A stretch of DNA of 64,000 nucleotides, taken from a virus. Where the stretch lies: positions 1 to 64,000 of IMG/VR virus record IMGVR_UViG_3300009130_000005; one strand, given 5' to 3'. The position numbers and the translations under genes are program-made. The notes below the pieces were generated by a model that was not told the DNA's origin, made no database searches, and was given only the letters and a program-made list of their open reading frames with translations. The stretch's first letter is position 1, and each line of letters begins with the position of its first letter. Shown in pieces: positions 11,776 to 54,252 of this stretch.

Positions 11776-13167
11776 ATGAAAATAGGATTCTGCTTCCTGC
11801 TTTATAAAGGAGTCACCCAACAAAAAGCTTGGCATAGGTTTTTTAAAAATGTAAAAGAAGAAGATTTTGGGATTTATTTCCACTCAAAGGAACCTAAAAA
11901 AGCCAATAGACAAAAACTACTTAAAGGTAAAGGCATACCATTTCAGATAAAAACTAACTGGGCAGACGTTAGCTTAGTAGAAGCTTCTATTGAATTATTT
12001 AGAGCGGCACTAAAAGACAATTGCGATTACGTGTTTTTACTTTCAGATAAGTGTGTGCCTATTCAGACCTTTAGTTTTATAAAATCTAACATATCAGATA
12101 ATTGTAGCATAATACATTATGGAATGAATGAGCCCCTATCAGGAACACAAAAAGGATACTTTGACAATAATGAAACCTCAAGAAGATACGAAGAATCAAA
12201 AAGCATAAAACATTATGTTAAAAAGAAAGACTTTATAAAGGCAGATCAATGGGTCGGATTAAACAGAGAACACGCAAGCTTACTAACAGAAAACGACCAC
12301 GCCCTCGAACACTTCAATGACGTTTTCGCCGCAGACGAACATTTTGTAGCGACAGTCCTTAATCAAAAAGGAAAATTAACAAACTGCAAAAACAAAAAAA
12401 TTACATTCACAGATTGGAGCTCAAAAAAAGAATGGAGGCACCCTAAAACATACTTCAAAGTAAGCTTTTCGGAATTTGGTTTAGCAAAAAGCTCTGGAGC
12501 ATTTTTCTTGAGGAAAATTCCTTGGATTTCAAATTTTAACATCATAAATAAATTTTATGGCAAATGTACTTTTCGCCTCCCAAGAGGCAAAAAGTATATA
12601 GCCTTTATTCATATACCAAAAAATGGTGGATGCAGTATAAAAAAATACCTTAAAAATGATGGAAGATTCCTAAAGCACCACCACCAAACAGCAAAAGAAA
12701 TAAAAAAACAATTAGGAGAAAACCTATGGAGGGAGACTTTTGTCTTTGCAACAGTAAGAAACCCTTGGTCAAGAGTAGTTTCTGCTTTTACATTCCTTCA
12801 GGCAGGAGGACTCCCTCAGTTTCAGGACAAAATAAAAGCAATTGAACTTGGGATAAAAAAAGACACAGACATTAACGAATGGATAAAAGAAAACAAAGAA
12901 AACTTTCTAAAAAGCGAACCCTTTGAGGGTACAGCAGGATGGATGCATTTCAAAAAACAAACTTCTTATATAAACGAAGACATAGATAAAATAATTAAAC
13001 TGGAAGACGAAGAACAAAAAAGAAAACTTTTTAAAAAAACAATTCCCGTCGAAAACAAATCAACAAAAAAAGATTCCAGACCCAAATTAAACAAAGAATC
13101 AAAAAAAATAATTAGCAAAGCCTACTCTCAAGACATAAAGGTTTTTGGCTACAGATTTCACGATTAA
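11776..13167 (+). CDS. GT14/core-2 branching-like glycosyltransferase fused to a sulfotransferase domain
   Basis: N-half TNWADVSLV, LLSDKCVPI, DQWVGL, DEHF, FLRK; C-half FIHIPKNGGCS and VRNPWSRVVS. Confidence 0.8.
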   Translation: MKIGFCFLLYKGVTQQKAWHRFFKNVKEEDFGIYFHSKEPKKANRQKLLKGKGIPFQIKTNWADVSLVEASIELFRAALKDNCDYVFLLSDKCVPIQTFSFIKSNISDNCSIIHYGMNEPLSGTQKGYFDNNETSRRYEESKSIKHYVKKKDFIKADQWVGLNREHASLLTENDHALEHFNDVFAADEHFVATVLNQKGKLTNCKNKKITFTDWSSKKEWRHPKTYFKVSFSEFGLAKSSGAFFLRKIPWISNFNIINKFYGKCTFRLPRGKKYIAFIHIPKNGGCSIKKYLKNDGRFLKHHHQTAKEIKKQLGENLWRETFVFATVRNPWSRVVSAFTFLQAGGLPQFQDKIKAIELGIKKDTDINEWIKENKENFLKSEPFEGTAGWMHFKKQTSYINEDIDKIIKLEDEEQKRKLFKKTIPVENKSTKKDSRPKLNKESKKIISKAYSQDIKVFGYRFHD

Positions 13168-13191
13168 GACAAAATAAGTGTACAATATATT

Positions 13192-13542
13192 ATGAGTTGC
13201 AATACCAAGAAAGTAAAAAATTTCCAGTTCTCAACTACATCCCCGCAGGACCTAGTAACCGTGCCTAGTTCTAAACAGGTAATTGTAAAACACATAAGCG
13301 TTACAGATACTAATACAAGCATGGCGACAGACAGAAATGGCAACTGTGTAGACATCATAATTAATGACTCAGACGGAATAGGCGACATCATATATCATCA
13401 AGCAGTGGAAGTTCCTTGGGGATCTTCCGTTACCCCACTAATGGGATATATTAATTTAGAAGAATCAGACAAACTCAAGATTCAACCGCATAAAAACACA
13501 AGAATAGACGTTTCAATACACTACATAGAAGAAGACGCCTAA
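13192..13542 (+). CDS. Hypothetical beta-rich protein (possibly structural)
   Basis: GTGTA 9 nt upstream; INLEESDKL-type C-terminus. Confidence 0.65.
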   Translation: MSCNTKKVKNFQFSTTSPQDLVTVPSSKQVIVKHISVTDTNTSMATDRNGNCVDIIINDSDGIGDIIYHQAVEVPWGSSVTPLMGYINLEESDKLKIQPHKNTRIDVSIHYIEEDA

Positions 13543-13547
13543 AAAAA

Positions 13548-13865
13548 ATGAACCTTATCATAGAAGCGCCGCTATGCGAGCCTCCAAGTGAAATTTCATG
13601 CTTCAGAGACATAACGCTTTATGGTAAAACATTTATTTTTGATGATGTTTTACTTGAATGCCCAAAGGGAACTCGATCTATATACTGGAACTGGCTGAAG
13701 CGACATGGAGCACACGATTTTATTTCTCAGTTAGTAAAAGAAACTGAAGGGGTTGGTGGATTTAAAATTGCAACAATACAAGGAAACTATATAATAGATA
13801 GAATTTGTTGTGAAAACTTACCAAAAATAATAACCACATTAACTAGGTTTCAGAAGTATTTATAG
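13548..13865 (+). CDS. Hypothetical protein
   Basis: ORF in operon context. Confidence 0.65.
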   Translation: MNLIIEAPLCEPPSEISCFRDITLYGKTFIFDDVLLECPKGTRSIYWNWLKRHGAHDFISQLVKETEGVGGFKIATIQGNYIIDRICCENLPKIITTLTRFQKYL

Positions 13866-13878
13866 TGTATAATATATT

Positions 13879-13965: not shown

Positions 13966-13976
13966 CCAAATTCTGG

Positions 13977-15752
13977 GTGAAAAATAAGAGAAATCGCAAG
14001 ATATCTATCGCTAATCTTGTAGCGGGATATGTTTGCGCACTAATGTTTTTGTTTTTAGTTTTACTAAACATACAGGAAGCTAAAATCGAAGAACTTCAAG
14101 AAGTTGATGAAACTTTTGTGATTAAAGATGAAGAAAAAAACAAGGAAGATGGTGTCATTTTTGACGGAATATCTCCAAACAGTGTGTATATTAATGGCAA
14201 TCGCCCAGAAATCATTTCAACACATCCAAGAGTCATACGAGAGCCAAACGTAATTGTAGATCGCGACATTTCATTACCTAACAGGGATACAGTAATATAC
14301 GGACACAAACCAAACAGAGACTTGCTTATAGATGAAACGGTTATTAATAAAGAATACATTGGCGACGCTGTGGGACATAACGAAAGCCATATTGGCATTG
14401 GGGGCATACATAGGGGTAACCATTATGTTAATGAAGGCAGTAATATACATGGAAGACATAAAGTCAATCGCGACGAACCTGATAGAGATGTTGACATTGG
14501 CCTTCTAGACAGAAGACTTGCCGAGCTAGATAAAGAAACAGGCCTATTTGAGGAATTTGTCGAAAAAGACAGACTAAATCGACACGACAAGATTGGATTT
14601 CGCGAACATGACGATGATATCGACATGTCAAATATAACTTTAGCCAGAGACAATGAAGCAGAACTCGGGGAGATAGATTTAGATTTTGATAAAAACAACG
14701 GCAAAGATTATGGAGTAGGAAAAGGTGGAGAGCTCTATGCGTATAATTATCCTAGTAGGGGCGTTGGCGCAGGAATTGGTTCTTCTGCAATAGGTGCAGG
14801 GGCTGGAGGAGGAGCTGGGCTTGGAGCAGGCATAGGAGAAGGAATGCTTAATGGAGAAGCAGTGCCAACCCTAGGCGGCGTAGGAACGGGAACTGCACCT
14901 CTAGAAGGGCAGTCAGCAGATGCACCTCCTTCAGGAGGTGTTGGAGGCCTTGTAGGAGGCGCAGGAGCTGGAGGAGCAGCGGGCTTGACACAAGGCTACA
15001 TTACCGAAAAGCTAGGACTAGGATTGGGCGTAGGACAAGGAGCAGGATATGGAGGAAATGGAGGAAGAGAATACAACTATGACCACCTCCCTAAAAACGG
15101 CGCACTTCATATTATGATACATGTAGATGGCAGCGGTAGTATTTTAGCAACAAGAAAGCAGCTCGACATTATGAAAGACACTTTGCTAAAAGAAGCTTTA
15201 CTTCCCTATTATAACAACGACGAGAACCTATACAATAAAAGAGTTTCAATTATTGATGACTCAGGAGAAAGAAGCCTTCAGTTTTTTAAACAAGCAACAA
15301 AAAAAGATAATGTTTTAGCTATTGCATTTCAGGATGAAGCTGCCCCAGACTATCACCTTCCCAACTTTAATAAGAAGCCTCAAGATGCATACAGCTACGA
15401 CCTCTCTGGACTGAAAAACGGATTAAATGGCTATAACGGCTTATATAGAGGCATAATGTTTCAAGTTGATAGAGGGAGAGTCTTTTCTAAATCTTTCAAG
15501 GAGATGGTAGAGTGTGCATGGAACGGAGAAGGCTACCTATCAAAAGAAAATCTTAAAAAATATCATAGAGATAACAATTTATCCAATATTAAAAACAAAC
15601 AAGGTATAGTTTTTAGTGATGAATATCATGCTAGGTCAGAAGGTAACCCACAATACTATTTAGATTTAATCCTTAAAGCATCAAAAAGAGTTGGTTTAGA
15701 CCTAGATATTTACGGAGCAGGCCTAAAAGACGGCAAGCATACGAAGAATTGA
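13977..15752 (+). CDS. Membrane-anchored Gly-rich protein with C-terminal VWA-like domain
   Basis: N-terminal TM helix, GAGxG-rich linker, HVDGSGS MIDAS-like motif. Confidence 0.6.
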   Translation: MKNKRNRKISIANLVAGYVCALMFLFLVLLNIQEAKIEELQEVDETFVIKDEEKNKEDGVIFDGISPNSVYINGNRPEIISTHPRVIREPNVIVDRDISLPNRDTVIYGHKPNRDLLIDETVINKEYIGDAVGHNESHIGIGGIHRGNHYVNEGSNIHGRHKVNRDEPDRDVDIGLLDRRLAELDKETGLFEEFVEKDRLNRHDKIGFREHDDDIDMSNITLARDNEAELGEIDLDFDKNNGKDYGVGKGGELYAYNYPSRGVGAGIGSSAIGAGAGGGAGLGAGIGEGMLNGEAVPTLGGVGTGTAPLEGQSADAPPSGGVGGLVGGAGAGGAAGLTQGYITEKLGLGLGVGQGAGYGGNGGREYNYDHLPKNGALHIMIHVDGSGSILATRKQLDIMKDTLLKEALLPYYNNDENLYNKRVSIIDDSGERSLQFFKQATKKDNVLAIAFQDEAAPDYHLPNFNKKPQDAYSYDLSGLKNGLNGYNGLYRGIMFQVDRGRVFSKSFKEMVECAWNGEGYLSKENLKKYHRDNNLSNIKNKQGIVFSDEYHARSEGNPQYYLDLILKASKRVGLDLDIYGAGLKDGKHTKN

Positions 15753-15778: not shown

Positions 15779-16126
15779 ATGGATATACCCTTAATTAAAA
15801 CTGGACATTTCTTCGACACAACTGCCAATAACTACAAAGACTGGGTAGTAGGTCCGTTTGTAAAAGAAGAAGAATTTTGCACAAAAAATTTTGAACTTAA
15901 ATTTCAAAGAGGCGAACAGGGAACCATAAGAAAACCAAAAAAAGTCCTTAATCAAAACGTTCACACACTGGCAATAGCAGTGTATGGATGTATAAGGATG
16001 AATTTTGCTAAAGAAGATATATATTTAAAGGAAGAAGGGGACTATATATACTGGAGCCCAGACGCTCCACACGAATTTGAATTTCTAGAAGACTCGTTAG
16101 TAATAACATTGAGGTGGAAATCATGA
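15779..16126 (+). CDS. Cupin-like protein
   Basis: WVVGPF, LKEEGDYIYWSPDAPHEF; start moved to the ATG 11 nt after GTGTA. Confidence 0.7.
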   Translation: MDIPLIKTGHFFDTTANNYKDWVVGPFVKEEEFCTKNFELKFQRGEQGTIRKPKKVLNQNVHTLAIAVYGCIRMNFAKEDIYLKEEGDYIYWSPDAPHEFEFLEDSLVITLRWKS

Positions 16127-16746
16127 TAAGCCACAAACACAAATTTATATTCGTTCATATTCCAAAATGCGGAGGAACAACGATTGAAAAGTTTTTTCTA
16201 GATAAAGATGGCGTTGAGTGCGACTGGAGTCGTAACTCCCCATTAGGAAGTTTATCAGAAGAATCAAAAAAGAAATACAGACTTCAGCCTGGACAACACG
16301 CGCCATTTAATAGCTTCGAAAAAGAATTCAAGGAAAAATATTTTTCTTTTACATTTACCAGAAACCCTTGGTCAAAAATGGTAAGCGAATGGGCGTACTT
16401 CTATAAACAAAAAGACCCAATAACCTTTAAAGAGTTTATACAAAGAATGATAAGCCCAGAACACAACAACAAGCACCCTTATTCAGGGTGGCACTTCAAA
16501 AGCCAGCATATTTTTTCTGAAGGTTGCAAATTTATCGGAAGGTTTGAAAGCTTACAAAATGACTTTAATCACGTCTGTGATAATTTAAAAATACCTCGGC
16601 AAGAACTTCCTCACGAAAACAAAAGCAAACATAAGCATTACACCGAATACTATGATGACGAAACTCGTTCGATTGTTGCAGAAAAATGCGCAAAAGACAT
16701 TGAGTATTTTGGGTATGAATTTGGTGAACAACATAACCAGAAATGA
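16123..16746 (+). CDS. Sulfotransferase (Sulfotransfer_2-like)
   Basis: FVHIPKCGGTT (5'-PSB), RNPWSKMVS (3'-PB), IGRFE. Confidence 0.88.
   Translation: MISHKHKFIFVHIPKCGGTTIEKFFLDKDGVECDWSRNSPLGSLSEESKKKYRLQPGQHAPFNSFEKEFKEKYFSFTFTRNPWSKMVSEWAYFYKQKDPITFKEFIQRMISPEHNNKHPYSGWHFKSQHIFSEGCKFIGRFESLQNDFNHVCDNLKIPRQELPHENKSKHKHYTEYYDDETRSIVAEKCAKDIEYFGYEFGEQHNQK
16636..16728 (+). repeat. 93-nt sulfotransferase 3'-end repeat, copy 1 (others at 27974, 28553, 29181; diverged copy at 54163)
   Basis: Near-identical DNA encoding HYTEYYDDETRxIVAEKxAKDIEYFGYEFGE. Confidence 0.8.
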
Positions 16747-17411
16747 AAACAAAATGCGACGATATAGTTTGCGTGTACAGTTCCTGCGAGCACTTAAATT
16801 ACGCACTTAAATTATGTAAATCCTTTAAGTCCATAAACTATAAGACAATCATATTTCTAACAAAAGACTGTAAGAAAAAAAATCACAGTAAACAATTTGA
16901 AATAGTCTATTTAGACACTAAAGAAGGTTATACAAAACTTTCCTTAAAAACCTATGAAATGCTAAGGTATATCCATAAAAAATACGATTACAAAACGATA
17001 TACAAGATAGATGCAACAGTGGAATCTGGCGAAACATGTCAACAAAAAAAAGAGACCAAGAGCCAAATTTTCAAAAGGTTTTTCAATAGCATTTGGCGAA
17101 GAAAAAACGACTACGCAGGTGCGGGCAGAAGGCGCACAGATGAAGCAAGATTGCAAAGATGGGCAAACAAAAAACAAATTAAAATTAATTCTAAATTTTT
17201 TAAAGAAGTAGTTCCGAGTGATGAATTAACTTATTATAGCGGAAAATTTTATGTAATCGGATATGATTTCGCTAATTTTATAATTAAAAAATCAAACGCA
17301 AAACAATTAGCATTAAGGCTAGAAAAACATTTAGGAGGTACTGAAGATCTCATGATTGGGATTTTGTATCAAAATTATACTAACAATACACTAAAGAGCA
17401 AACAACAATGA
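16743..17411 (+). CDS. Galactosyltransferase (GT31)-like protein
   Basis: EGYTKLSLKT, YKIDA, GGTEDLMIG; paralog of 290..1006. Confidence 0.55.
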   Translation: MKTKCDDIVCVYSSCEHLNYALKLCKSFKSINYKTIIFLTKDCKKKNHSKQFEIVYLDTKEGYTKLSLKTYEMLRYIHKKYDYKTIYKIDATVESGETCQQKKETKSQIFKRFFNSIWRRKNDYAGAGRRRTDEARLQRWANKKQIKINSKFFKEVVPSDELTYYSGKFYVIGYDFANFIIKKSNAKQLALRLEKHLGGTEDLMIGILYQNYTNNTLKSKQQ

Positions 17412-18241
17412 ACCCACAAAAAATCCGCAAAAAAAATCCAGTAACTTTTTTTATTAATCAGCTAGCTGAAGAGCAATCAAACAATAACGCACCAATCATA
17501 GATGTAATTCCGCCTGACGGTAACAAAGGGGATGGCTTGATACACGAAGGATCATATCAACTTTTTAAAAAACATGAGTTAAAATACAACCGCATACCCT
17601 GGCGGAACGGAGAGCAGGCAGATAATAATTTTAAAAAAAGTTCTAACAACTTTAATACGCTTATAATTCTAGGAAGTGGCGCTTTTTCGAGAAACTATTA
17701 TAGAGGAGTCGAAATGCTTCAGACTGCGTCAGCAATCTATGATTTTGTATTTGTATTTCCTAGTACATATGACACAAGCTTTTTGCCCGTTCGATCCATG
17801 GTAACCAAAATTCCCAAGAACATGGTTTTATTTTGCCGCGAGCGCAAAAGCTATTACAATTTAAAAAAACTTTCTCCGCACCCAGGCAATATATACTTAG
17901 ATCATGATACTGCACTTTCACTAGATTATACGCCGTGGAAAAAAAAGGGTAAAGGAGTTTTATATGCATTTAGAAACGATGGAGAAAGCCCTAACTACAA
18001 ACTCCCCAAAGAAAATATAGACGTCTCGAAGGGTAAAGCTAAAGATTGGCGAATGCTGCTAGACGATATTAGTGGATATAGCGAGGTACATACCAATCGT
18101 GCCCACGGGATGATAGCATCAGCAATGCTCGGAAAAGAAACTCACGTATACAATTCAAACTACTTTAAACAACTCGCAATATACAAACACTCGTTACAGC
18201 ATCTACCTAATGTTCATTTTCACAAAAAGTATATTTGGTAA
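17408..18241 (+). CDS. Polysaccharide pyruvyltransferase-like protein
   Basis: GNKGDGLI, FCRERKSY, HDTAL, TNRAHG. Confidence 0.75.
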   Translation: MNPQKIRKKNPVTFFINQLAEEQSNNNAPIIDVIPPDGNKGDGLIHEGSYQLFKKHELKYNRIPWRNGEQADNNFKKSSNNFNTLIILGSGAFSRNYYRGVEMLQTASAIYDFVFVFPSTYDTSFLPVRSMVTKIPKNMVLFCRERKSYYNLKKLSPHPGNIYLDHDTALSLDYTPWKKKGKGVLYAFRNDGESPNYKLPKENIDVSKGKAKDWRMLLDDISGYSEVHTNRAHGMIASAMLGKETHVYNSNYFKQLAIYKHSLQHLPNVHFHKKYIW

Positions 18242-18247: not shown

Positions 18248-19093
18248 ATGAAAGCAAAAAACATGACAACACACGTACTTTGCGGAGGATTTAATAGAGA
18301 AGAATATCTTGAAGAGTTTTTCATTTACTATAAACATATACTTAAAGTAAATACCATAAAGTACTTCTTTAATAATAACGCTCTTGCTAAAAAATCAAGC
18401 AAACAAGCAACGGAAAAAATTTGCAAAAAACATGGTGTTATTTTTGAGTCTATAAGCGTAAGGCATACTCGAGGCGACTTCCAAACAAAGATATGCATGC
18501 AAAGAGTAAAAGAACTAAAAAGCTTAAAATCAAACGCCTGGCTCTTGTTTGTTGATGTAGACGAATTTTTAAACTGCAAAGGACTTACTCTTTCTAACGC
18601 CGTCAAGAAAACACTTTCACACAACCCTGATGCACAAGCAATAGGTTTTACCCAGAGAATATTTAAACCAATTAAAAGCGGCAATTTTAAAAAATTTTTA
18701 GTTACAGAATTATTAACCGATCACGTCGGTATGGGCTGGACGGCAGAACGCTTAAGTAGAGCCCTAAACTCCAACGGCTGGCCAGGCGGCCCGCGAAGAA
18801 CACAAAAATGCATATGCAATGTTCAGACGGCAACTCATTTTTTGCACCATACGGGTCCAGACATGGACAAAGCAGTACTCGAATTGGATTACTTCATACA
18901 TCATTATCAAATATACTCAATGAAACATATAGCCGAGCCTTGCTGGAAAACAAAAAGAAGCACAAAAGAAGATGAATTTAGAACGCTTCTTGCTCAAGAT
19001 TTACTAAGTTCAGAAGGAACAAATATCTTTGAAAACGATGAGCACTGGAGGAATGCTGTAGATTTAATCAAAAAAATTATTATAAAAAAATGA
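18248..19093 (+). CDS. Glycosyltransferase (GT92/GT2-like)
   Basis: YLEEFFIYY, WLLFVDVDEF, IHHY. Confidence 0.65.
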   Translation: MKAKNMTTHVLCGGFNREEYLEEFFIYYKHILKVNTIKYFFNNNALAKKSSKQATEKICKKHGVIFESISVRHTRGDFQTKICMQRVKELKSLKSNAWLLFVDVDEFLNCKGLTLSNAVKKTLSHNPDAQAIGFTQRIFKPIKSGNFKKFLVTELLTDHVGMGWTAERLSRALNSNGWPGGPRRTQKCICNVQTATHFLHHTGPDMDKAVLELDYFIHHYQIYSMKHIAEPCWKTKRSTKEDEFRTLLAQDLLSSEGTNIFENDEHWRNAVDLIKKIIIKK

Positions 19094-20202
19094 ACCAAGC
19101 AGAAAAAGAAGCAAAATACAGACTGGGAGATTTGTACAACAAAAAACTTAAAGCAAATAATAAATTATTATTTTGTAAAAAAAATGGGAAAACTTACTGG
19201 GTTAAAAATTCAAAATGCCCAATAAAGGGCAACCTTAAAGATGACCTATCCTACCTTGCTTCAATTAGCAACCAAGATATTGAAATCCCTATTGGAAGTG
19301 GGGACAGGGAGGAGTCTAGTAACGGTTACGTTTTTAGTTATGCGCGCTCGAACGGAGATAATTCCGTAGGACTGCTAAACGATCATTGGTCAAGCAATAC
19401 CAAATTTAACAACGAAGAACAGCATATATTGCGGCACTTGCACGATGTTCCAATTCCGTACCTAAAACATTCCTTAGGTTTCAAAAAAATGCCAAAACAT
19501 GCAAAGGAAGAATATATCAATTGGGCAAAAAAATACCCACTTCACCCAGAACTTCTCAACGTAGAAGGGCTAACCTTCAATACCTTAAAGTCGGCTTTTA
19601 TAAAAACAAAAAAATTTAAAGACAAAGCTCCCATATTACATTGGAGGGGGGCACCAACAGGAGGATTCAACAACTTTCAGCGCGAACAAGGCCATAATCA
19701 TAAAGCAGTAGAAAGAAAAGAAATAATAAAATATTTCAAAAACAACCCCTCTGGCTTTATTGATATCTCACTTAAGGGCGAACCAAAAGATGAAAGATTT
19801 AAACTTGAAAAAGGGAAGCCTTGGAACGGCGGTTTAAACATTTTTTACACAAAAGACTACGCAAGCAGGGGTCATAAATACCTCATAGAATTACAAGGTA
19901 ATGATTACGCAAGCAATACCTATTGGATATATAGCAAAGACTGTATAGTTTTTCGCCCAGATTTCCTTAAATCGTATACACCTTGGGATTGTCACCTGGA
20001 ACCATGGGTACACTATGTTCCATTTGATCACGCAAACTATGGAGACCTAGTAGACAAAATAAAATGGTGCGAAAAAAACACAGGCAAGTGCGAGATAATT
20101 ATTAAAAACGCAAACAACCTACATTCTTTAATGAATAACAATGAGCACAAAAAGAAAGTGTATACAATAATGCTAAACAAAATAACAAAAAATCTAAAAT
20201 GA
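19090..20202 (+). CDS. Glycosyltransferase family 90 (CAP10-like)
   Basis: WRGAPTG, KYLIELQGND, LEPWVHYVP, DLVDKIKW. Confidence 0.8.
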   Translation: MNQAEKEAKYRLGDLYNKKLKANNKLLFCKKNGKTYWVKNSKCPIKGNLKDDLSYLASISNQDIEIPIGSGDREESSNGYVFSYARSNGDNSVGLLNDHWSSNTKFNNEEQHILRHLHDVPIPYLKHSLGFKKMPKHAKEEYINWAKKYPLHPELLNVEGLTFNTLKSAFIKTKKFKDKAPILHWRGAPTGGFNNFQREQGHNHKAVERKEIIKYFKNNPSGFIDISLKGEPKDERFKLEKGKPWNGGLNIFYTKDYASRGHKYLIELQGNDYASNTYWIYSKDCIVFRPDFLKSYTPWDCHLEPWVHYVPFDHANYGDLVDKIKWCEKNTGKCEIIIKNANNLHSLMNNNEHKKKVYTIMLNKITKNLK

Positions 20203-20927
20203 AAAAAAATAAAATCAAAGCTTTTTATCTAAGAAATCAAAGGGTTGGTTCGACCAGCTTCCTAGGAACTTTCGGAGGACTCTCCCCACTAATGACTGAA
20301 TCCTGCCATGCTAGCTACGAATTCGCAGAGCATCGATATAATTTAAGAAAAAAAAACGAGAAAGGCTTTACAGAGTGGGAAGATTTACACAAGATTGTTT
20401 CAGTGAGAAATCCATTTGATCAGCATGTAGCACAATATTTCAAAAGGAAAGGTATTGGTACAAAAGAATTCGGTGCCCAGACCCCAAAAGTACAAAAAAG
20501 AATTATCGAAAACTTCATGATGCATGTTGATAGCCAATATATTTTTTTCAAGGACGCTATTGAAAACAAAATTACAAACAATGAATTAACTGGAAAATTC
20601 GCACGTAGTGCATTTTTGCAATGCTATATATGTTGGCCAATATATACATTTAAAAATGAAATCATGACATCCTTATGCATCAAAGGGGATGGCCCACACT
20701 TAGAAAAAGATTTACTGGAGATGCTAAAACTTCTAGACCTCCGAGATTGCCCTGATGCCAGGAAACGCTGCAGTATTTATCTAAAAAAATCCATTGAAAG
20801 GGGTTATACAGGAGGAAAGAGGCGGGAAGTTTTCAGAGATTATAAAAATTTTTATAACCCAGAAACAAAAAAGAAAGTCAGACAAATGAGAGCTATGGAA
20901 ATCAACGCACACAATTACAAATTTTAA
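20199..20927 (+). CDS. Divergent sulfotransferase-like protein
   Basis: LRNQRVGSTS, VRNPFDQHVA, YKNFYNPETKKKV...EINAHNYKF. Confidence 0.65.
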   Translation: MKKNKIKAFYLRNQRVGSTSFLGTFGGLSPLMTESCHASYEFAEHRYNLRKKNEKGFTEWEDLHKIVSVRNPFDQHVAQYFKRKGIGTKEFGAQTPKVQKRIIENFMMHVDSQYIFFKDAIENKITNNELTGKFARSAFLQCYICWPIYTFKNEIMTSLCIKGDGPHLEKDLLEMLKLLDLRDCPDARKRCSIYLKKSIERGYTGGKRREVFRDYKNFYNPETKKKVRQMRAMEINAHNYKF

Positions 20928-25735: not shown

Positions 25736-25746
25736 TATCATTAAGT

Positions 25747-39475: not shown

Positions 39476-40303
39476 TTACTCTGGTCGTTTGCCTAAAGGC
39501 TTACCATCTTGCCCAATTTCGCCTGCTCGTATTTTTGTAGCAGATACGGATTGTAATTCCTTACTAAGTTCAAGTTGTTCAATATTATAACCAACTCCTC
39601 TGCCGTAAAAGACATCGGTAATGTTAGGAAGCTCTACGACTTTTATTTTATCACCGAATTCTACGCAAGCCGCATGAATTTCAGCTTTAACTTTTTCAAA
39701 ATCATAAGGGTTTGAATCGTCTATCCCAGCAACATCTCTTAAGGCTATACAGCATTGACCGCTACGTTTAATAGATTCCGCTACCAAAGTTTTATGACCA
39801 ACATGAAATGGCTGATACCTTCCAATTAATAAGGCTGTTGGAGCTTGATTATCCCATTTTTCTGTTTTGTATATATTTTTCAATGCTATTTCGCACCACT
39901 CATCAGGAGTACCTTCCCTTAAAATAAGGTCGTGTTCGTCCCATCTTTTATCTTTGGTTGGGTCTTCGAATAATTTATTCGTATCTTCATATCTTCCTTC
40001 TTTAATTCTGTCTACCCATATAACAAAGTCAGGATTAAAAAGTTTTCGAGCCTCTTCTGTTGGGCAACAAAAGTCAGAGATTACATAACCTCCTCCAAGT
40101 TTTGCCCAATCAGCAAGTTTCCCCATTCTTCTGGCATGCTCATTTCTGTCGTCTTCAGAGAATCCAAGATCTTTATGAATTTCTTGACGAACTGCGTCAG
40201 CATTATACCACACGGCGTTTAATCTAGGAACAAGCTTTTCAGCAAGCGTTGTCTTTCCAGAACCTGGAAGACCCATGATAAGTATTTTTCTTTTAGGTTT
40301 CAT
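39476..40303 (-). CDS. Adenylylsulfate kinase-like domain fused to an HxGH nucleotidyltransferase
   Basis: GLPGSGKTT, NADAVR, DLGFSEDDR (CysC-like); GRYQPFHVGH...SATKIR; start at MKPKRK, 9 nt after ATGTA. Confidence 0.82.
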   Translation of the reverse strand: MKPKRKILIMGLPGSGKTTLAEKLVPRLNAVWYNADAVRQEIHKDLGFSEDDRNEHARRMGKLADWAKLGGGYVISDFCCPTEEARKLFNPDFVIWVDRIKEGRYEDTNKLFEDPTKDKRWDEHDLILREGTPDEWCEIALKNIYKTEKWDNQAPTALLIGRYQPFHVGHKTLVAESIKRSGQCCIALRDVAGIDDSNPYDFEKVKAEIHAACVEFGDKIKVVELPNITDVFYGRGVGYNIEQLELSKELQSVSATKIRAGEIGQDGKPLGKRPE

Positions 40304-44252: not shown

Positions 44253-45167
44253 ATGAAAAAAGCTGTAGTAACAGGTGGTGCAGGATTCATAGGAAGCAAT
44301 TTAAGTAAAGAATTGTTAGACCAAGATTGGCAGGTAAACATTATAGACAATTTTGAGGCAGGAAAAATGTCCAATGTTCCGCTTGGAGCAAAAATTTACC
44401 AAACAGATTTAAGATACGAAGAAAACGAAGAAACAATTCTATCTTGTCTCAAAGGTGCGGATTGCGTTTTCCATCTTGCAGCCCTACCAAGGGTACAACC
44501 ATCTATTGACCACCCAATTGAATACCATGACGCAAATGTTAATGCAACATTAAATATTTTAAACCTATCCAAAGAATCAGGTGTTAAAAAGTTTGTTTTT
44601 AGTTCAACTTCTGCTGTATATGGAGACACAAATCAATTCCCAACTTCAGAGAGTGCGAATATAGAACCTTTAAGTCCTTATGGTTTACATAAATTGGTGG
44701 GAGAAGAGTATTGTTCTTTATTCTCAAAGCTTTATGACATAAAAACAGTATGCCTAAGATACTTTAATGTGTTTGGCAATAATATGCCCCTAGAAGGCGC
44801 GTACACGCTTGTTATGGGCGTTTTCGCAGAACAAATGAGACAAGGTAAACCAATGACAATTAGAGGTGATGGAGAACAAAGGAGAGACTTTGTTCACGTC
44901 AAAGATGTTGCTAGAGCAAACATTCTCGCAGCAACTTCTAAAAAGGTCGGAAAGGGAGAGTGTATAAATATAGGTAGCGGGACAAATCGAAGCGTTAATG
45001 AGATTGCAGACTTAATGGGAAGTAATAAAGTTTTTGTTGATCCAGTTGTTGAACCCAGAATTACATTATGTGATAATTCCTTAGCTCAAAAGCTCTTAGA
45101 CTGGAGCCCAGAGTTTTCCGTAGAGGATTTTATGCCTTGGTGGCTCAAGGAATTAGGTTTGGCATAA
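44253..45167 (+). CDS. NAD-dependent nucleotide-sugar epimerase/dehydratase
   Basis: TGGAGFIG, HLAA, SPYGLHK, LRYFNVFG, RDFVHV. Confidence 0.92.
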   Translation: MKKAVVTGGAGFIGSNLSKELLDQDWQVNIIDNFEAGKMSNVPLGAKIYQTDLRYEENEETILSCLKGADCVFHLAALPRVQPSIDHPIEYHDANVNATLNILNLSKESGVKKFVFSSTSAVYGDTNQFPTSESANIEPLSPYGLHKLVGEEYCSLFSKLYDIKTVCLRYFNVFGNNMPLEGAYTLVMGVFAEQMRQGKPMTIRGDGEQRRDFVHVKDVARANILAATSKKVGKGECINIGSGTNRSVNEIADLMGSNKVFVDPVVEPRITLCDNSLAQKLLDWSPEFSVEDFMPWWLKELGLA

Positions 45168-47205: not shown

Positions 47206-47206
47206 A

Positions 47207-47347: not shown

Positions 47348-47706
47348 GCCCAACAACAATATCTTTAATTATTGCAGTCATTGTTTTAGTTGCATTGGCG
47401 ATAAACCTTAATGTCAGACTAAAAAAACTTACAGAAAAACAAAAGAAAGATCTGTCTCAAAGAAAAAGCAGAGAAGTTTTATTTGGACAGTCTGCAGAAA
47501 AAATTGCCCCTTTTCTAGATGAGTTTGGATTTGACCCAAGAGACTCTCAGTTCTTAGGCCAACCAATTGATTATGTAGTTTTCGACGAAGAAGAAGTTTG
47601 TTTTGTTGAAATAAAAACTGGCCAAGCTCGACTAACTACAAAACAAAGAAGAATAAAAAAACTCATAGAAAACAAGAAAGTTTCTTGGAAAGAATTAAGG
47701 ATATGA
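47344..47706 (+). CDS. Holliday-junction-resolvase-like endonuclease (Endonuc_Holl) with N-terminal TM helix; start uncertain
   Basis: GQSAEKIAPF, FLGQPIDYVVF, FVEIKTG, QRRIK; frame open from 47341. Confidence 0.75.
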   Translation: MSPTTISLIIAVIVLVALAINLNVRLKKLTEKQKKDLSQRKSREVLFGQSAEKIAPFLDEFGFDPRDSQFLGQPIDYVVFDEEEVCFVEIKTGQARLTTKQRRIKKLIENKKVSWKELRI

Positions 47707-48290
47707 TTAGTCATGAGCGCAAGTGCATATTTATACATATCCCCAGATGCGGAGGAAGCTCCATGGAACTTGCTCTCGAGGGAAAATCTGCATTTAATCG
47801 CAAAGAAAAGCATCTTATAGCAACAACAGCAAAAAGAATATACAAAGATTATTGGGATGATTATTTTAAATTCTCTTTTATAAGAGACCCTTGGGATAGG
47901 ACAGTTTCATTGTCAAGATGGCCATGGTTTTATGGGTGCAGAGTTAGAAAAGGAAAACTATTAATAAAAGGTTTAAAAAACCTAATAATAGACCCAAGAT
48001 CCAAGAGCAGATTTGACAGAAAAAAACTAAAATTTAAAAAAAACGCAGTCTATTTAAATATCCTTAACGAAGAAATTGACTTTATAGGTAGGTTTGAAAA
48101 TCTACAAGAAGACTGGTTGTACGTCTGCAAGCAAATAGGCTTAGAGCAAAAACCTTTAGGTAATATAAAAAAGTACAAAACCAAATTGAAATATCCACAC
48201 AGGAGCTACTATACTACAGAAACAAAAAATATTGTACAACAAATACACCAAGAAGATATAAATTATTTTAATTATAAATTTGAATATTAA
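47703..48290 (+). CDS. Sulfotransferase
   Basis: FIHIPRCGGSS, RDPWDRTVS, IGRFE. Confidence 0.87.
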   Translation: MISHERKCIFIHIPRCGGSSMELALEGKSAFNRKEKHLIATTAKRIYKDYWDDYFKFSFIRDPWDRTVSLSRWPWFYGCRVRKGKLLIKGLKNLIIDPRSKSRFDRKKLKFKKNAVYLNILNEEIDFIGRFENLQEDWLYVCKQIGLEQKPLGNIKKYKTKLKYPHRSYYTTETKNIVQQIHQEDINYFNYKFEY

Positions 48291-49686: not shown

Positions 49687-49896
49687 GGAAGTTCTCGACG
49701 GAGGCTTCCTGTGGGTGACCGAACAAGCCTGTCGTTAGCGGGCTAAGGTATGCAGATTCCCTGTGGTGGGGTAGCAGAGTCCAATCGGATGAGCTAAAGA
49801 CCATATACCGAGTCTAATCTGTGGTTCGAAGTAGGAAAACATTGAACTGATGTTAACGCCGAAAAGTTGGAGGTATTCAGTAGTCCTTCCCCACAC
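49687..49896 (+). ncRNA. Unassigned structured non-coding RNA (~210 nt)
   Basis: GC-rich island without a long ORF between promoter and terminator; multiple helices, long-range TGTGGG/CCCACA pairing, possible pseudoknot. Confidence 0.72.
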
Positions 49897-49903
49897 TTAT
49901 TTT

Positions 49904-50524: not shown

Positions 50525-50975
50525 TATTATATTTAAAATTTTTTTGCAAAACAAATCATATTCAGAAGTATATGCCCTAGATGTAAATTTTCTTAATGCG
50601 TGGAATAATCTAGTTAATACAGAAAGTTACGACAACTATAAAAATTGCTCTATCTATTTGGTTGAGATTGAGGATGACCTAGAAGATCCTCCTGAGCAAA
50701 TCGTAGATGTTTGCCTAATAGATTCCGCCGAAGATGCGCTTCAGGCTTTAGATTTTTTATCTTGGGGAGAAATAATTGACTTGGATATTAAAAATTCCAC
50801 CGACCTTTCGGATAAGGAATGCTTGGCATACATTCTTTGGGAAATCACTTTCTGGGGCTTTAGCGACAGTTCGATTGCAGAACAAAAAGCTAAGTTAAAA
50901 AAGTCTCAAAAAGACTGGGAGCGGGTTGAAAAAGAGCTCAAGGATTTATATAATCCAAGAGATGAATCTTTATAA
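50475..50975 (+). CDS. Hypothetical acidic protein
   Basis: LDFLSWGE, ILWEITFWGF. Confidence 0.65.
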   Translation: MTLRQALRKYNYKTVFNIIFKIFLQNKSYSEVYALDVNFLNAWNNLVNTESYDNYKNCSIYLVEIEDDLEDPPEQIVDVCLIDSAEDALQALDFLSWGEIIDLDIKNSTDLSDKECLAYILWEITFWGFSDSSIAEQKAKLKKSQKDWERVEKELKDLYNPRDESL

Positions 50976-51459
50976 AATCCCAACTCACAAGAATTGTCCC
51001 AAAAAAGTTTACGCAGTAGTCGAGATTCCTAAAGGCACCAGCGCAAAATACGAGTATGACCCAGAAATAGGAGTCTTTTTTTATGACAGAAGCCTGCTAA
51101 GTGCAATGACATACCCTGCGAGTTATGGTTTTATCCCAATGACTAAAGCAGAAGATGGAGATGCGCTTGATATTTTAGTTTATAATGCAGTACCCATCGC
51201 AAGAGGTACGGTTGTTGAATGCTTAGTATTAGGAGTGCTAGATATGAATGACGATGGAGAAAAAGATTACAAAATACTTGGCGTCCCTACATCACACGTT
51301 CGATCATATGAAAGCCTTGATGATATTGACCCGCTTTTCTTAGAGGTATCTAAAAACTTTTTCCAACACTACAAAGACCTAAATGGTAAAGATGTCGAAA
51401 TACTTAACTGGCACGACAAACATACTGCAAGAAAAATTATAAATGAAAACTTAATATAA
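50962..51459 (+). CDS. ppa: Family I inorganic pyrophosphatase
   Basis: EIPKG, KYEYD, YPASYGFIP, DGDALD, DYKILGVP, FFQHYK. Confidence 0.93.
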   Translation: MNLYKIPTHKNCPKKVYAVVEIPKGTSAKYEYDPEIGVFFYDRSLLSAMTYPASYGFIPMTKAEDGDALDILVYNAVPIARGTVVECLVLGVLDMNDDGEKDYKILGVPTSHVRSYESLDDIDPLFLEVSKNFFQHYKDLNGKDVEILNWHDKHTARKIINENLI

Positions 51460-51466
51460 AAATCAA

Positions 51467-51952: not shown

Positions 51953-51954
51953 CA

Positions 51955-52122: not shown

Positions 52123-52126
52123 ATTT

Positions 52127-52942
52127 ATGAAATACATATTAATAGCTATAGCCTTATTGGCATCAAACTGTCTAGCCGCAAGAGATAAAAATCCCTTGCC
52201 AGAAAAGCCAAAGATTGAAAAACCTTCAAAGCCAAAGCATTTTCCCAAGCATTGGGGTCGCCCTCCTCAAATCCAATTAAAGGATTACGTAACTCTTCCT
52301 AATGGATTCGGAAAGGGGAGCTCAACTCTCGCAAACTGGATTAAGGAAAATTTAAAAAAAGACGCAGAAAATAAAAAGCCTGAGACTAAGCCTAAGCCCG
52401 AAATTAAGCCCAAGCCCAAGCCTAACAGGCCTTCAAGGCCAAATCCAAGACCTGAACCCCCTAAAGAGGTAAAAGACAAGATGGAAGCCTACAAGGAGGC
52501 ACAAAAAACCCTTCAAGAAGGTTTGAAAAAGAGACTCAAGGATTTAGGAGAAAAACCCTCAAGAGAAGCAGTAAGAAAGGAAGTTGAGAAATTTAAAGCA
52601 GAAAACAAATCAGCAATAGATTCTCAAAAATCTTTAGGTAAGGATATTCAAGATTGGCATAAAGACAATAGACCCGAGAGGCCAAAAAGACCCGAACCAA
52701 GCGAAGATGTAAAAAATAAAATGAATGCCCTCAAAGAGCAACAAGAAGCTTTTAAGGGTGTTAGAGACGCTTTCAGGCAAGCAATGGAGCGATCAAAAGA
52801 TATGAGCAAAGAAGATAGAGATGAATTAATTAAACAATTTAAAGAAGCGAGCGCTGAAAATCATAAAGCAATCAAAGAAGCTCACAAAGCTTTACAAAAA
52901 GAAATAAGAGAAATAAAACAAGAAGGTGATCGTAGACAATAA
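52127..52942 (+). CDS. Secreted Pro/Lys-rich helical protein
   Basis: Signal peptide; HWGRPP...GKGSSTL motif; internal duplication RPEPPKEVKDKM / RPEPSEDVKNKM. Confidence 0.7.
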   Translation: MKYILIAIALLASNCLAARDKNPLPEKPKIEKPSKPKHFPKHWGRPPQIQLKDYVTLPNGFGKGSSTLANWIKENLKKDAENKKPETKPKPEIKPKPKPNRPSRPNPRPEPPKEVKDKMEAYKEAQKTLQEGLKKRLKDLGEKPSREAVRKEVEKFKAENKSAIDSQKSLGKDIQDWHKDNRPERPKRPEPSEDVKNKMNALKEQQEAFKGVRDAFRQAMERSKDMSKEDRDELIKQFKEASAENHKAIKEAHKALQKEIREIKQEGDRRQ

Positions 52943-52959
52943 TTAAAACAAGGATAGAT

Positions 52960-53601
52960 ATGAAAAAGTTGTGGATAGTAATACTGGCTGTGTTGTGTAC
53001 AAATTTGTACGCACAAAAAAATAATAACAAACCCAAGGACGAAGAACCTGATCAATTACCTACGCAAACTGAAGAACCTACTAAAGAAGAACCTTCGGTT
53101 GATGATAACACAAAACCATCATTACCACCAATTGATTTTGTAGATGAGGTTGAAAACAGTGGAGGTCCTGAAGTTATTGAAGAACTTGAGAAGGTTAAAA
53201 AAGAGAAAGATGATTTGGCAAAGATCATTGTTGATAAAGAGGAAAACGAAGGCAAGTTACTTAAGAGAATAGAAGAACTTCGTGTTTCAAAGGAATCACT
53301 TGAAAAAAACCTTGAAGCTGCAAGTGATTTGATTGACGAACTCAACAAAGAAAAAAAGCAATTGAAATCAAACATCTCGGATTTACAAACAGAACTTGAT
53401 AAACCTGTTGGTTCTTTATTTGATGGTTGGGTTTACTTACCCAAGTCTGGTTGGATTTATACTTCACCTAAAATTTATCCGTATGCGTTTTCTCAAAATG
53501 ACGGATGGTTAAAATACGAACTTGGTACAGACCCAAGACGAGTATTTTATTTTAAGGAAGATGCTTGGAAAGTTTTGAATAAAAAGAAAAACAAATTATA
53601 G
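52960..53601 (+). CDS. Secreted coiled-coil protein with C-terminal GW-rich domain
   Basis: Signal peptide; GWVY..GWIYTS..YPY..GWLKY. Confidence 0.7.
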   Translation: MKKLWIVILAVLCTNLYAQKNNNKPKDEEPDQLPTQTEEPTKEEPSVDDNTKPSLPPIDFVDEVENSGGPEVIEELEKVKKEKDDLAKIIVDKEENEGKLLKRIEELRVSKESLEKNLEAASDLIDELNKEKKQLKSNISDLQTELDKPVGSLFDGWVYLPKSGWIYTSPKIYPYAFSQNDGWLKYELGTDPRRVFYFKEDAWKVLNKKKNKL

Positions 53602-53640
53602 AGACAAGACAAGACGGGGATAGAAGAAAATAATTAGCAA

Positions 53641-54252
53641 ATGATAGATCATCAGTATAAATGCATTTTTATTCATATTAACAAATGCGGAGGAACAACC
53701 TTAGATAGATTATTTAAGGCAAACGCTCGTGGACACAAATCCATTCTATCATACCAAAAGGCTTACCCAAAAAAATTTGACTCTTATTTTAAATTTTCTT
53801 TTACGAGAAATCCATGGGACAAAATGGTGTCGTTTTACCATTACCATGTCAGAAGAGGGTGGCCTTTTAACTGGGATTGGAATAAGAATAACGCCCCTAA
53901 CTTTGAAGATTTCATTAAAATAATTCACACTTATTCAGAAGAAAAAGAAAAAAAGATATGGCCGAAGAAACAGATTCGAAAGCATAAGACAACAACTATG
54001 CGCATGAGTAATCATTTAGATTGGCTGTGTAGTGATAGTGGAGAGATATTAGTTGACTTTATAGGCAAATTAGAGAATTTTCAATCAGATTTCGATCAAG
54101 TCTGCGACAAAATAGGAATGCCAAGGCGAAATCTACCGCACAAAAACAAAAGCAAACACAAGCATTATAGAACTTACTACAACGATGAAACGATTCAAAT
54201 CGTTGCAGAACGATTCTCAAAAGATATTGATTATTTTGGATATCAATTTTAA
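53641..54252 (+). CDS. Sulfotransferase
   Basis: FIHINKCGGTT, RNPWDKMVS, IGKLE. Confidence 0.88.
   Translation: MIDHQYKCIFIHINKCGGTTLDRLFKANARGHKSILSYQKAYPKKFDSYFKFSFTRNPWDKMVSFYHYHVRRGWPFNWDWNKNNAPNFEDFIKIIHTYSEEKEKKIWPKKQIRKHKTTTMRMSNHLDWLCSDSGEILVDFIGKLENFQSDFDQVCDKIGMPRRNLPHKNKSKHKHYRTYYNDETIQIVAERFSKDIDYFGYQF

Follow-up and report, generated by a model that had tools for sequence, protein, structure and literature searches.

The window analyzed here, the first 64,000 nucleotides (64 kb) of virus record IMGVR_UViG_3300009130_000005 (116,466 bases; CheckV completeness estimate, 76%), encodes a 275-residue protein in which an adenosine 5'-phosphosulfate (APS) kinase-like half is fused to a small nucleotidyltransferase (NT) half. 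Also encoded are a CysQ-type phosphatase, an inorganic pyrophosphatase, and numerous sulfotransferases among glycan-building enzymes. From gene families, folds, and co-occurrence, all of which were observed, we infer the activities of all enzymes of this module; the explanation that we think probable, with some reserve, is phage-run sulfation in which the fusion would be the source of the sulfate donor 3'-phosphoadenosine 5'-phosphosulfate (PAPS). A first-pass annotation of the window had argued that the module serves sulfation and not sulfur assimilation. We consider this highly probable, since, besides its 11 sulfotransferases, the contig encodes more than 10 enzymes for building or tailoring glycans, has no match to CysH, CysD, or Sat, and shows no sulfite reductase among the Pfam matches of the 117 open reading frames (ORFs) scanned (65 in the window and 52 in the remainder of the contig).

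Pfam and NCBIfam searches confirmed three genes that the first-pass annotation had located:

39476-40303, minus strand: the 275-aa fusion (from ATG), with the kinase at about residues 1 to 148 and NT at about residues 150 to 275.
38670-39473, minus strand: CysQ-type 3'(2'),5'-bisphosphate nucleotidase (a phosphatase of 3'-phosphoadenosine 5'-phosphate, PAP), immediately downstream of the fusion; Inositol_P, 154.9 bits.
50926-51459, plus strand: family I inorganic pyrophosphatase (ppa); PF00719, 161.8 versus 23.5 bits.

The kinase-nucleotidyltransferase fusion and its relatives

The kinase half scores 48.4 bits against APS_kinase (PF01583; cut-off, 21.1), matching profile positions 5 to 90 of 152 only, and 45.7 bits against the equivalog model TIGR00455, below its cut-off of 138.7. 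In a Protein Data Bank (PDB) sequence search with the fusion, each of the top 22 matches was an APS kinase or contained an APS-kinase-type domain, and GLxxSGKxTLA, DxxR, and KDLGFSExDRNE..RR are conserved in the alignment. The Walker A motif is present as GLPGSGKTT, and the P-loop Lys is invariant in 56 family members. YNADAVR and KDLGFSEDDRNEHARR of the fusion align with LDGDNIR and KDLGFSEADRNENIRR of the Penicillium chrysogenum APS kinase; the fusion has the DLGFSxxDRxENxRR block, retains the last Asp alone of the DGD motif, and belongs to a wider family in which the APS-binding block loosens to DFSxEGR..QA.RM. An AlphaFold2 model of the fusion (predicted local distance difference test score, 92.2) was searched with Foldseek. 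Ranks 1 to 34 among the matches listed were all APS kinases, many of them in complex with APS or PAPS, and the target-normalized template modeling scores against stand-alone APS kinase chains were 0.5 to 0.7, placing this half in the APS kinase fold. Judged from its residues and from the model, the kinase half likely acts on APS.

The NT half, about 120 residues long, contains GRYQPFHVGH...YGRGVGY...SATKIR. Invariant across the family are the P-loop Lys and the Arg of NADxVR and, in the NT half, GRxQPxHxGH, GRxxG, and the Arg of SATxIR; the NT family also has invariant RD, NP, and YGRxVGY blocks of its own. A VIA fold search returned NadM-type nicotinamide mononucleotide adenylyltransferases (NMNATs) at Z 11.5 and 11.1, phosphopantetheine adenylyltransferase (PPAT) at Z 11.2, and Thermus ATP sulfurylase (1v47) at Z 9.3. 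The Thermus enzyme ranked 6 of 48,161 chains and other Sat chains lay at Z 5.7 to 6.8, a superfamily-level likeness that is common to NMNAT and PPAT. The best sequence and fold matches, NadM/archaeal-type NMNATs (PDB 2qjt, 1f9a, and 1ej2), share the fold and the GRxQPxHxGH and SxTxxR motifs with NT, but NT is some 40 to 50 residues shorter, aligning over about 115 residues to NMNAT domains of about 165. It also falls well under the NadM cut-offs (NF003786, 30.3 versus 397 bits; TIGR01527, 20 versus 181 bits) and differs in its accessory distribution and its sulfur-gene contexts. The contig has no PF01747 (ATP-sulfurylase) match, and the Sat motifs TRNxPxHxxH and GRDHAG, present in SAR11 Sat proteins, are absent from NT.

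ATP sulfurylase is the partner that has repeatedly been fused to APS kinase in evolution (PAPSS, Sat-CysC, and CysN-CysC), and the chemistry of the superfamily is adenylyl transfer between pyrophosphate (PPi) and an oxyanion. Because NT holds the ATP-sulfurylase place in the fusion, occupies the sat slot, and occurs in sulfotransferase operons and in genomes mostly without Sat or CysD, gene context makes it reasonably probable that NT acts as a sulfurylase.

The cellular part of that context comes from a scan of one genome per species with an 11-sequence alignment, in which the best 80 of 324 relatives were analyzed. Their loci are mostly from Pelagibacteraceae, with one SAR86, soil Alphaproteobacteria, Peribacteria, one Flavobacteriaceae, one Woesearchaeota, and others; the closest cellular relatives of the fusion among these 80, from SAR11, SAR86, and soil Alphaproteobacteria, are 44 to 59% identical to it. 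Kinase and NT form a single ORF at 18 of the 80 loci and adjacent genes, kinase first, at 45 (mostly SAR11, plus the one SAR86). The kinase lies about 2.4 kb from NT at 3 loci, NT precedes an APS kinase at 3 (gene pairs in L129 to L131), and at the other 11 the query detected NT without a kinase. Phages and alphaproteobacteria have the kinase-NT order within one ORF, and reverse NT-kinase fusions occur in a gammaproteobacterium (L127; APS_kinase, 136 bits) and in Peribacteria (L132; 91 bits). Sulfotransferases stand beside NT in a Peribacteria locus (L130) that has, in this order, a sulfotransferase, NT, and an APS kinase (71.7 bits) inside a glycosyltransferase cluster. They do so again in Flavobacteriaceae (L124), where a divergent TauE/SafE-family permease gene is followed by a canonical, full-length APS kinase (97 bits), NT, a PK-barrel protein, Sulfotransfer_3, and an ABC transporter. 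The gene between NT and Sulfotransfer_3 in this metagenome-assembled genome (L124:1716-2723) encodes a pyruvate-kinase barrel-domain protein (205.7 bits).

At three SAR11 loci (L107, L114, and L116) the order is NT, an AprM-like 264-aa ORF with weak QmoC-type similarity (31.8 bits), aprB, and aprA; at a fourth (L115) it is kinase, NT, CADD, AprM-like, aprB, and aprA. In Allochromatium vinosum, sat lies directly upstream of aprMBA and is co-transcribed with it (PMC3779200), and NT therefore holds sat's position in SAR11. The CADD-family gene (TIGR04305, 305 bits; L116:7134-7964 and L115), a putative folate-metabolism gene, is interleaved with NT and the aprM-like/aprBA genes. A sample of 81 Pelagibacteraceae genomes contained 37 with NT, 28 with aprB, and 4 with canonical Sat. 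Of the 28 aprB genomes, 27 have NT and only 2 have canonical Sat; of the 53 that lack aprB, 10 have NT (odds ratio for NT with aprB, ~116; Fisher p = 3.5e-12). By comparison of coordinates, NT and aprB share a contig and a strand in 11 genomes, at a distance of 1.1 to 3.6 kb. A published study (PMC10356861) states that "most SAR11 lack ATP sulfurylase," and a preprint (10.64898/2026.04.03.716430) reports sulfotransferases in the SAR11 hypervariable region.

The fusion belongs to a large family, the 120 best matches all being at least 73% identical and some lying on marine contigs of up to 208 kb. A library clustered at 50% identity holds 2,794 representatives at E ≤0.001, with full-length fusions at 31 to 53% identity plus kinase-only and NT-only proteins. 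Phage context was assessed in 46 related viral loci, and genome tallies were made in 13 genomes that bear the fusion, of which 11 have a completeness rating of at least 90%. A sulfotransferase lies within 10 kb of the fusion at 19 of the 46 loci. Sulfotransfer_2 is found in 11 of the 13 genomes (1 to 11 matches each), and neither ATP-sulfurylase PF01747 nor PAPS_reduct (CysD/CysH family) is found in any of them. The two genomes that lack Sulfotransfer_2 are less clear exceptions than they look at first: G002 has a Sulfotransfer_1/3 gene above both cut-offs, and in G008 a 204-aa ORF overlaps the fusion stop, with Sulfotransfer_3 as its best, sub-threshold Pfam match (14.2 bits) and viral sulfotransferase clusters as its closest atlas neighbors (scores of 0.94 to 0.98).

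Isolates with the full fusion are Xylella, Xanthomonas, and Stenotrophomonas siphophages and phage DLP_6; the kinase alone is found in phiRSL1, RsoM2USA, and a 462-kb uncultured phage. Among 50,697 isolate records, 4 of the 16 kinase records are also among the 19 sulfotransferase records (hypergeometric p = 2.6e-11), a count in which one phage, phiRSL1, appears twice as duplicate records. The kinase and sulfotransferase genes of phiRSL1 are about 5 kb apart. In Xylella phage Bacata the sole sign of a sulfotransferase is a sub-threshold Sulfotransfer_4 match (19.5 versus 22.8 bits) in a 192-aa ORF two genes upstream of the fusion; a Sulfotransfer_2 match (13.6 bits) was rejected as a false positive, its ORF lacking the RNP..R motif. 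A NADAR-domain gene of Bacata (L004:8559-9002; 94.8 bits) overlaps the start of the fusion, and the block of these three genes is the least well explained of the fusion contexts.

Sulfotransferases, partner enzymes, and the phage that carries them

The sulfotransferase by-product PAP is inhibitory and is hydrolyzed by CysQ, and removal of PPi drives sulfate activation; this enzymology, together with co-occurrence with the module, supports a place for CysQ and ppa in a PAPS cycle. CysQ of the window scores 219.3 bits against TIGR01331 (cut-off, 228.8) over positions 3 to 249 of 250, the next family being HisN at 97.6 bits, and the pyrophosphatase scores 156.5 bits against NF002317, under the NCBIfam cut-off of 200. 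CysQ is present in 4 of the 13 fusion-bearing phage genomes, namely those with 11, 10, 7, and 6 Sulfotransfer_2 matches (one-sided Mann-Whitney p = 0.01 across the 13), and ppa is present in 10. A ppa gene lies within 10 kb of the fusion at 14 of the 46 viral loci and directly adjacent at 5; it is within about 400 bp at L010, L039, L013, L035, and L043, and coordinates put it 0.4 to 0.9 kb from CysQ in G011 and G004. The tandem of cysQ and the fusion, to which the first-pass annotation had attached meaning, is peculiar to this contig, as cysQ lies within 10 kb of the fusion at 2 of the 46 related loci and adjacent to it at none; the emphasis placed on it there was mistaken. A tblastn search for CysQ among isolates returned mostly bacterial-looking or fragmentary records, none of them a fusion-carrying phage.

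Nine sulfotransferase domains had been read in the window from sequence inspection. Seven of them score above the Pfam cut-off of 22 bits for Sulfotransfer_2 (PF03567), and two are divergent and backed by profile comparison; a profile search of the whole contig gave 11 Sulfotransfer_2 matches. The sulfotransferase genes are as follows:

11776-13167, plus strand: bifunctional GT14 (Core-2/I-branching) plus Sulfotransfer_2 protein; Branch, 98.7 bits (residues 3 to 226), and Sulfotransfer_2, 28.9 bits (residues 272 to 459).
16114-16746, plus strand: sulfotransferase of the short phage type (~200 aa); Sulfotransfer_2, 70.1 bits, with the motifs seen in the alignment.
20199-20927, plus strand: divergent sulfotransferase, no Pfam match; hhalign probability, 92%, E 6.5e-7, 197 columns, full length.
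20930-22075, plus strand: 381-aa protein, sulfotransferase-like but divergent in its N-terminal part and unassigned in its C-terminal part; Sulfotransfer_2, 19.9 bits (under the cut-off).
27428-28069, plus strand: sulfotransferase, first of a tandem of three; Sulfotransfer_2, 51.4 bits.
28073-28648, plus strand: sulfotransferase, second of the tandem; Sulfotransfer_2, 55.6 bits; phrog_3347, 95.8 bits.
28668-29288, plus strand: sulfotransferase, third of the tandem; Sulfotransfer_2, 45.1 bits.
47685-48290, plus strand: sulfotransferase; Sulfotransfer_2, 44.7 bits, in two stretches.
53641-54252, plus strand: sulfotransferase; Sulfotransfer_2, 63.4 bits.
L003:5211-5840, outside the window: sulfotransferase; Sulfotransfer_2, 56.8 bits.
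L003:8189-8818, outside the window: sulfotransferase; Sulfotransfer_2, 75.4 bits.

For the divergent pair, the hhalign profile was built from the nine robust sulfotransferases of the contig (seven in the window and two outside), and the protein at 20930-22075 matched it at a probability of 88% (E 3e-6) over 76 N-terminal columns that span both PAPS-binding motifs. These motifs are PKxGxT/S (5'-phosphosulfate binding, 5'-PSB) and RxPxxRxxS (3'-phosphate binding, 3'-PB). In alignment, IPKxGGTS and RNPWDRxxS are common to the contig's sulfotransferases; the former is a consensus that is degenerate in the proteins starting at 20199 and 20930, and in the RNP motif Arg and Pro are invariant and Ser is nearly so.

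Around the sulfotransferases are genes for glycan building, tailoring, and sugar-nucleotide supply, together with large proteins:

1006-2010, plus strand: UDP-galactopyranose mutase (sugar-nucleotide supply); GLF, 166.7 bits.
13977-15752, plus strand: 591-aa protein in the middle of the island; no Pfam, NCBIfam, or PHROG match.
16743-17411, plus strand: GT31-like protein; Galactosyl_T, 26 bits.
17408-18241, plus strand: polysaccharide pyruvyl transferase; PS_pyruv_trans, 40 bits.
18248-19093, plus strand: GT2/GT92-like protein; Glyco_tranf_2_4, 30.3 bits, and Glyco_transf_92, 26.5 bits.
19090-20202, plus strand: GT90-like protein; Glyco_transf_90, 29.8 bits.
22080-27408, plus strand: three large proteins (619, 603, and 563 aa); no Pfam match.
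29281-30051, plus strand: GT47/RXYLT1-like glycosyltransferase; Exostosin_GT47, 43 bits, and RXYLT1_C, 33.2 bits.
30060-30908, plus strand: PhyH-type dioxygenase; PhyH, 28.2 bits.
30857-31534, plus strand: TylF-type O-methyltransferase; TylF, 77 bits.
44253-45167, plus strand: NAD-dependent sugar-nucleotide epimerase/dehydratase, GalE-like; Epimerase, 203.9 bits, and TIGR01179, 177.4 bits (under the cut-off).

The N-terminal ~155 to 175 residues of the 619- and 603-aa proteins match a glycosyltransferase family, phrog_4447, at 35.2 and 50.2 bits. Kyte-Doolittle profiles were computed for 27 proteins. No 19-residue window is hydrophobic in CysQ, in the fusion, or in any of the island's 20 enzymes that are sulfotransferase-like or have a family assignment. 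Within the island, an N-terminal hydrophobic segment is seen in the 591-aa protein alone (19-residue maximum of 2.54 at residue 14); this protein may be a membrane anchor, an exporter, or a glycan acceptor or substrate. No flippase or polymerase was seen among the Pfam-scanned ORFs, and this, with soluble enzymes of eukaryote-like glycosyltransferase (GT) families, fits decoration of virion proteins. The clustering of these genes makes it plausible that the glycans to be sulfated are products of glycosyltransferases that the phage itself encodes; the acceptor may be virion proteins, which would be compatible with the soluble GTs, or a host envelope glycan.

A second glycan island lies near the terminase, with a homologue of GT29, the sialyltransferase family (L003:8853-9545, at ~106.9 to 107.5 kb of the contig; 65.8 bits), adjoining two sulfotransferases and a UDP-glucose dehydrogenase; another epimerase is also outside the window. 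A small nucleotidyltransferase at 54572-54997 was tried as an NT paralogue and rejected (hhalign, 3%); it resembles glycerol-3-phosphate or heptose-1-phosphate nucleotidyltransferases.

The first-pass annotation had taken the genome to be phage-like, and the remainder of the contig bears this out. It is not a cellular chromosome, because the same record carries a terminase, rII-like genes, and phage replication genes, along with a transfer-messenger RNA (tmRNA) and tRNAs. By Pfam, a large T4-type terminase (Terminase_6N) lies close to the contig end, and replication and nucleotide genes include a class I ribonucleotide reductase, a split DnaE-type polymerase, a ClpB-like ATPase, PhoH, dUTPase, and dCMP deaminase. 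A DNA ligase gene lies elsewhere on the contig, outside the window. A PHROG-type search gave an RIIB match downstream of a 745-aa HATPase_c_3 protein that we read as rIIA-like. GC content is 33 to 41%, and the plus strand carries nearly every gene of the window. The record is best explained as a fragment of a marine phage of roughly 150 to 220 kb.

RNA genes on the contig comprise two tRNAs, one tmRNA, and one manA RNA motif. The phage-encoded tmRNA is one-piece (38260-38657, plus strand; Rfam RF00023, 132 bits, full length) and ends 13 bp away from the cysQ stop codon, which is on the opposite strand; it was picked up by Rfam and not by ARAGORN. Because alphaproteobacterial tmRNAs are two-piece, its form argues against an alphaproteobacterial source of the gene. 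Marine metatranscriptome contigs of three studies contain near-identical tmRNA pieces (0 to 2 differences per ~200 to 270 nt). In four marine metatranscriptome runs (Logan contigs) searched for expression, it was mainly the tmRNA that was covered, with DNA carry-over possible; the fusion appeared only as low-depth pieces of ~90% identity, and cysQ only in one bin of one run, at depth 0.77.

The manA motif (49687-49899, plus strand; RF01745, 83.4 bits versus a gathering threshold of 55.2) is intergenic, upstream of a DUF6557 gene and ppa. Directly upstream of the glycan island (8357-11757, plus strand) are genes for a 684-aa PSCyt2 (DUF1549) plus PSD1 (DUF1553) protein and a 422-aa DUF1501 protein (364 bits), domains that we take to be typical of Planctomycetes and Verrucomicrobia and odd cargo for a phage. 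The DnaE-type replicase is spread over three genes (31800-35736, plus strand), encoding a PHP-domain protein, an RNase_T-type exonuclease, and a Pol III alpha core with NTPase, finger, and HhH domains. A plus-strand region of small ORFs holds a MazE-type antitoxin-like ORF (62641-62949; 28 bits) and a UvdE UV-damage endonuclease (63089-64000; 122 bits).

Competing explanations of the fusion

In the proposed pathway, soluble phage glycosyltransferases and tailoring enzymes would build a glycan in the infected cell, and the 11 or more PAPS-type sulfotransferases would sulfate it. The NT half would adenylylate sulfate (ATP + sulfate -> APS + PPi), the trimmed APS kinase half would convert APS to PAPS, the phage pyrophosphatase would pull the unfavorable first step, and CysQ would hydrolyze the inhibitory by-product PAP. 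The self-contained PAPS cycle claimed in the first-pass annotation is retained in part: CysQ, ppa, and the APS kinase half fit it, whereas a canonical ATP sulfurylase is lacking and NT is nearest to NMNATs. We regard it as fairly probable that the NT domain makes APS, as an analogous and independently derived sulfate adenylyltransferase; the fusion would then be a miniature PAPS synthase, and phage sulfation would be self-sufficient apart from sulfate and ATP.

Several observations weigh against this proposal. NT is closest, both in sequence and in fold, to NadM-type NMNATs and PPAT, and the Z of 9.3 for Thermus Sat is at a level that the fold tool rates only moderately informative. When NT was compared with four SAR11 Sat proteins, hhalign gave a probability of 7% (E 0.005) over 48 columns in the HxGH region only, without aligning the YGRxVGY block of NT with GRDHAG of Sat; the known ATP-sulfurylase family therefore does not include NT. 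Much of the lid region is missing from the kinase, which falls far under the NCBIfam equivalog cut-off. In SAR11, NT and Sat are not complementary, since three of the four Sat-bearing genomes also have NT, and aprB is missing from 10 of the genomes with NT. Because the genomes in all of these comparisons, in SAR11 and in phages, are related to one another, the p-values overstate independence. The 13 phage genomes were all chosen because they bear the fusion, which looks core to the phage clade whatever the sulfotransferase count (1 to 11 Sulfotransfer_2 matches, and none in two genomes). Most relatives place it between clpB-like and nucleoside-deoxyribosyltransferase-like genes, outside sulfotransferase islands, and in phage Bacata it follows the NADAR gene, a hint of NAD metabolism. 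A terminase scan of the clade, aimed at fusion-less relatives as a control, confirmed 588 stretches as relatives, of which 80 loci were kept; most of these are fragments, and three of the largest contigs (L189, L200, and L215) bear the fusion.

A first alternative is that the phage uses APS of its host, the kinase making PAPS for the sulfotransferases and NT being an adenylyltransferase of NMN or a similar substrate, fused to the kinase for an unrelated reason, e.g., NAD salvage during infection. NadM-type enzymes as best matches, the NADAR gene adjoining the fusion in Bacata, and the frequent nucleoside-deoxyribosyltransferase-like neighbor all favor this explanation, as does the existence of phage NAD reconstitution pathways (bioRxiv 10.1101/2024.02.11.579819). 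We nevertheless consider it unlikely, because it leaves unexplained why NT stands ahead of aprM-like/aprBA genes and co-occurs with aprB in 27 of 28 genomes, why Peribacteria and Flavobacteriaceae have it in sulfotransferase operons, and why it is fused to APS kinases in both orders. NT is moreover accessory in SAR11 (37 of 81 genomes), a poor fit to a housekeeping NAD enzyme, and its ~115 alignable residues contrast with the ~165 of NMNATs. A SAR11-type host would mostly be without ATP sulfurylase, though AprBA could give APS from sulfite.

Synthesis of coenzyme A (CoA) proceeds through an adenylyltransferase and then a ribose-3'-kinase. The fusion matches this logic and might, as an analogue of PPAT plus dephospho-CoA kinase, make another 3'-phosphorylated adenylate, with CysQ acting on a breakdown product. 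PPAT is the second-best fold match of NT (Z 11.2), and some databases name relatives "phosphopantetheine adenylyltransferase," but the kinase specifically matches APS kinases, including the APS-binding block, and the sulfur contexts (aprBA, sulfotransferases, and the TauE/SafE permease) point elsewhere; we rate this explanation as quite improbable. Least credible to us, at a very low probability, is that the kinase is an ordinary viral cysC that boosts assimilatory sulfate reduction in the host. Viral cysC is widespread in marine and freshwater viruses, tied to larger genomes, and transcribed, according to PMC10914622 and 10.1101/2021.01.05.425418. The 13 genomes, however, have no cysH or cysD match, no sulfite reductase match was found among the scanned ORFs, 11 sulfotransferases are present here, and CysQ tracks sulfotransferase number. 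Neither of those two papers uses the word "sulfotransferase" in its main text, so that the sulfation alternative was not weighed there.

Known systems and implications

The closest parallel in architecture is metazoan PAPSS1/2 (PDB 1x6v, 1xjq, and 2ofw), in which a single chain likewise has an N-terminal APS kinase and a C-terminal sulfate-activating module; it is the top fold match of the phage kinase domain, and the chemistry proposed for the phage protein is identical. The phage fusion differs in having 275 aa versus the 586 to 590 residues of PAPSS1 chains and, in place of the PF01747 module, an unrelated 120-aa NMNAT-like domain; its kinase lid is trimmed. Canonical Sat (PF01747) shares with NT the nucleotidyltransferase superfamily and the HxxH/HxGH and (I/V)SGTxxR / SATxIR motifs, but it has ~350 aa versus ~120, and its TRNxP and GRDHAG motifs are absent from NT. 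In SAR11, NT takes the place that sat has in the sat-aprMBA operon of A. vinosum.

Rhizobial NodPQ-NodH and Xanthomonas RaxPQ-RaxST keep a private PAPS supply beside sulfotransferases, with CysD/CysN-CysC-type enzymes and typically one sulfotransferase. The phage module resembles them in encoding a dedicated PAPS supply together with sulfotransferases; those systems are cellular and use CysD/CysN-CysC, whereas the phage has 11 sulfotransferases and a noncanonical domain. Chloroviruses and Megavirinae, viruses of eukaryotic hosts, encode virion glycosylation machineries of their own, and they resemble this phage in having many soluble eukaryote-like GT families virus-encoded (GT14, GT31, GT47, GT90, GT92, and GT29-like here); literature searches found no report of sulfation for them or for any phage. 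The same searches (subscription-only articles and supplements lay outside them) turned up no paper that describes a phage PAPS synthase, the sulfation of glycans by a phage, or a sulfurylase role for the NT family. Published viral cysC auxiliary metabolic genes (Kieft et al., 10.1101/2021.01.05.425418; PMC10914622) are, like the kinase here, APS-kinase-like genes on large aquatic phage genomes. They are published as assimilatory sulfate reduction, whereas the kinase here is linked to sulfotransferases, CysQ, ppa, and a candidate sulfurylase; some of them are probably kinase-NT fusions.

NT is a candidate new enzyme class at the center of a known kind of pathway. We put it at slightly better than an even chance that NT is a third class of ATP sulfurylase, forming with the kinase the smallest known PAPS synthase, making glycan sulfation host independent in a highly abundant ocean phage clade, and constituting, as a stand-alone gene ahead of aprM-like/aprBA, the "missing" sulfurylase of sulfite oxidation in SAR11. 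If this is true, sulfate activation would have been invented a third time, on an NMNAT-like scaffold about one-third the size of Sat, and genome annotation would systematically miss it, although the family is large (2,794 representatives in the clustered library). A 275-aa single-chain PAPS synthase would also be useful for enzymatic sulfation. The recognized gap in SAR11, the most abundant of marine bacteria, where sulfite is oxidized via AprBA in cells mostly without ATP sulfurylase (PMC10356861), would become directly testable, and viral "cysC" would mark phage-driven glycan sulfation, not a viral input to sulfur assimilation.

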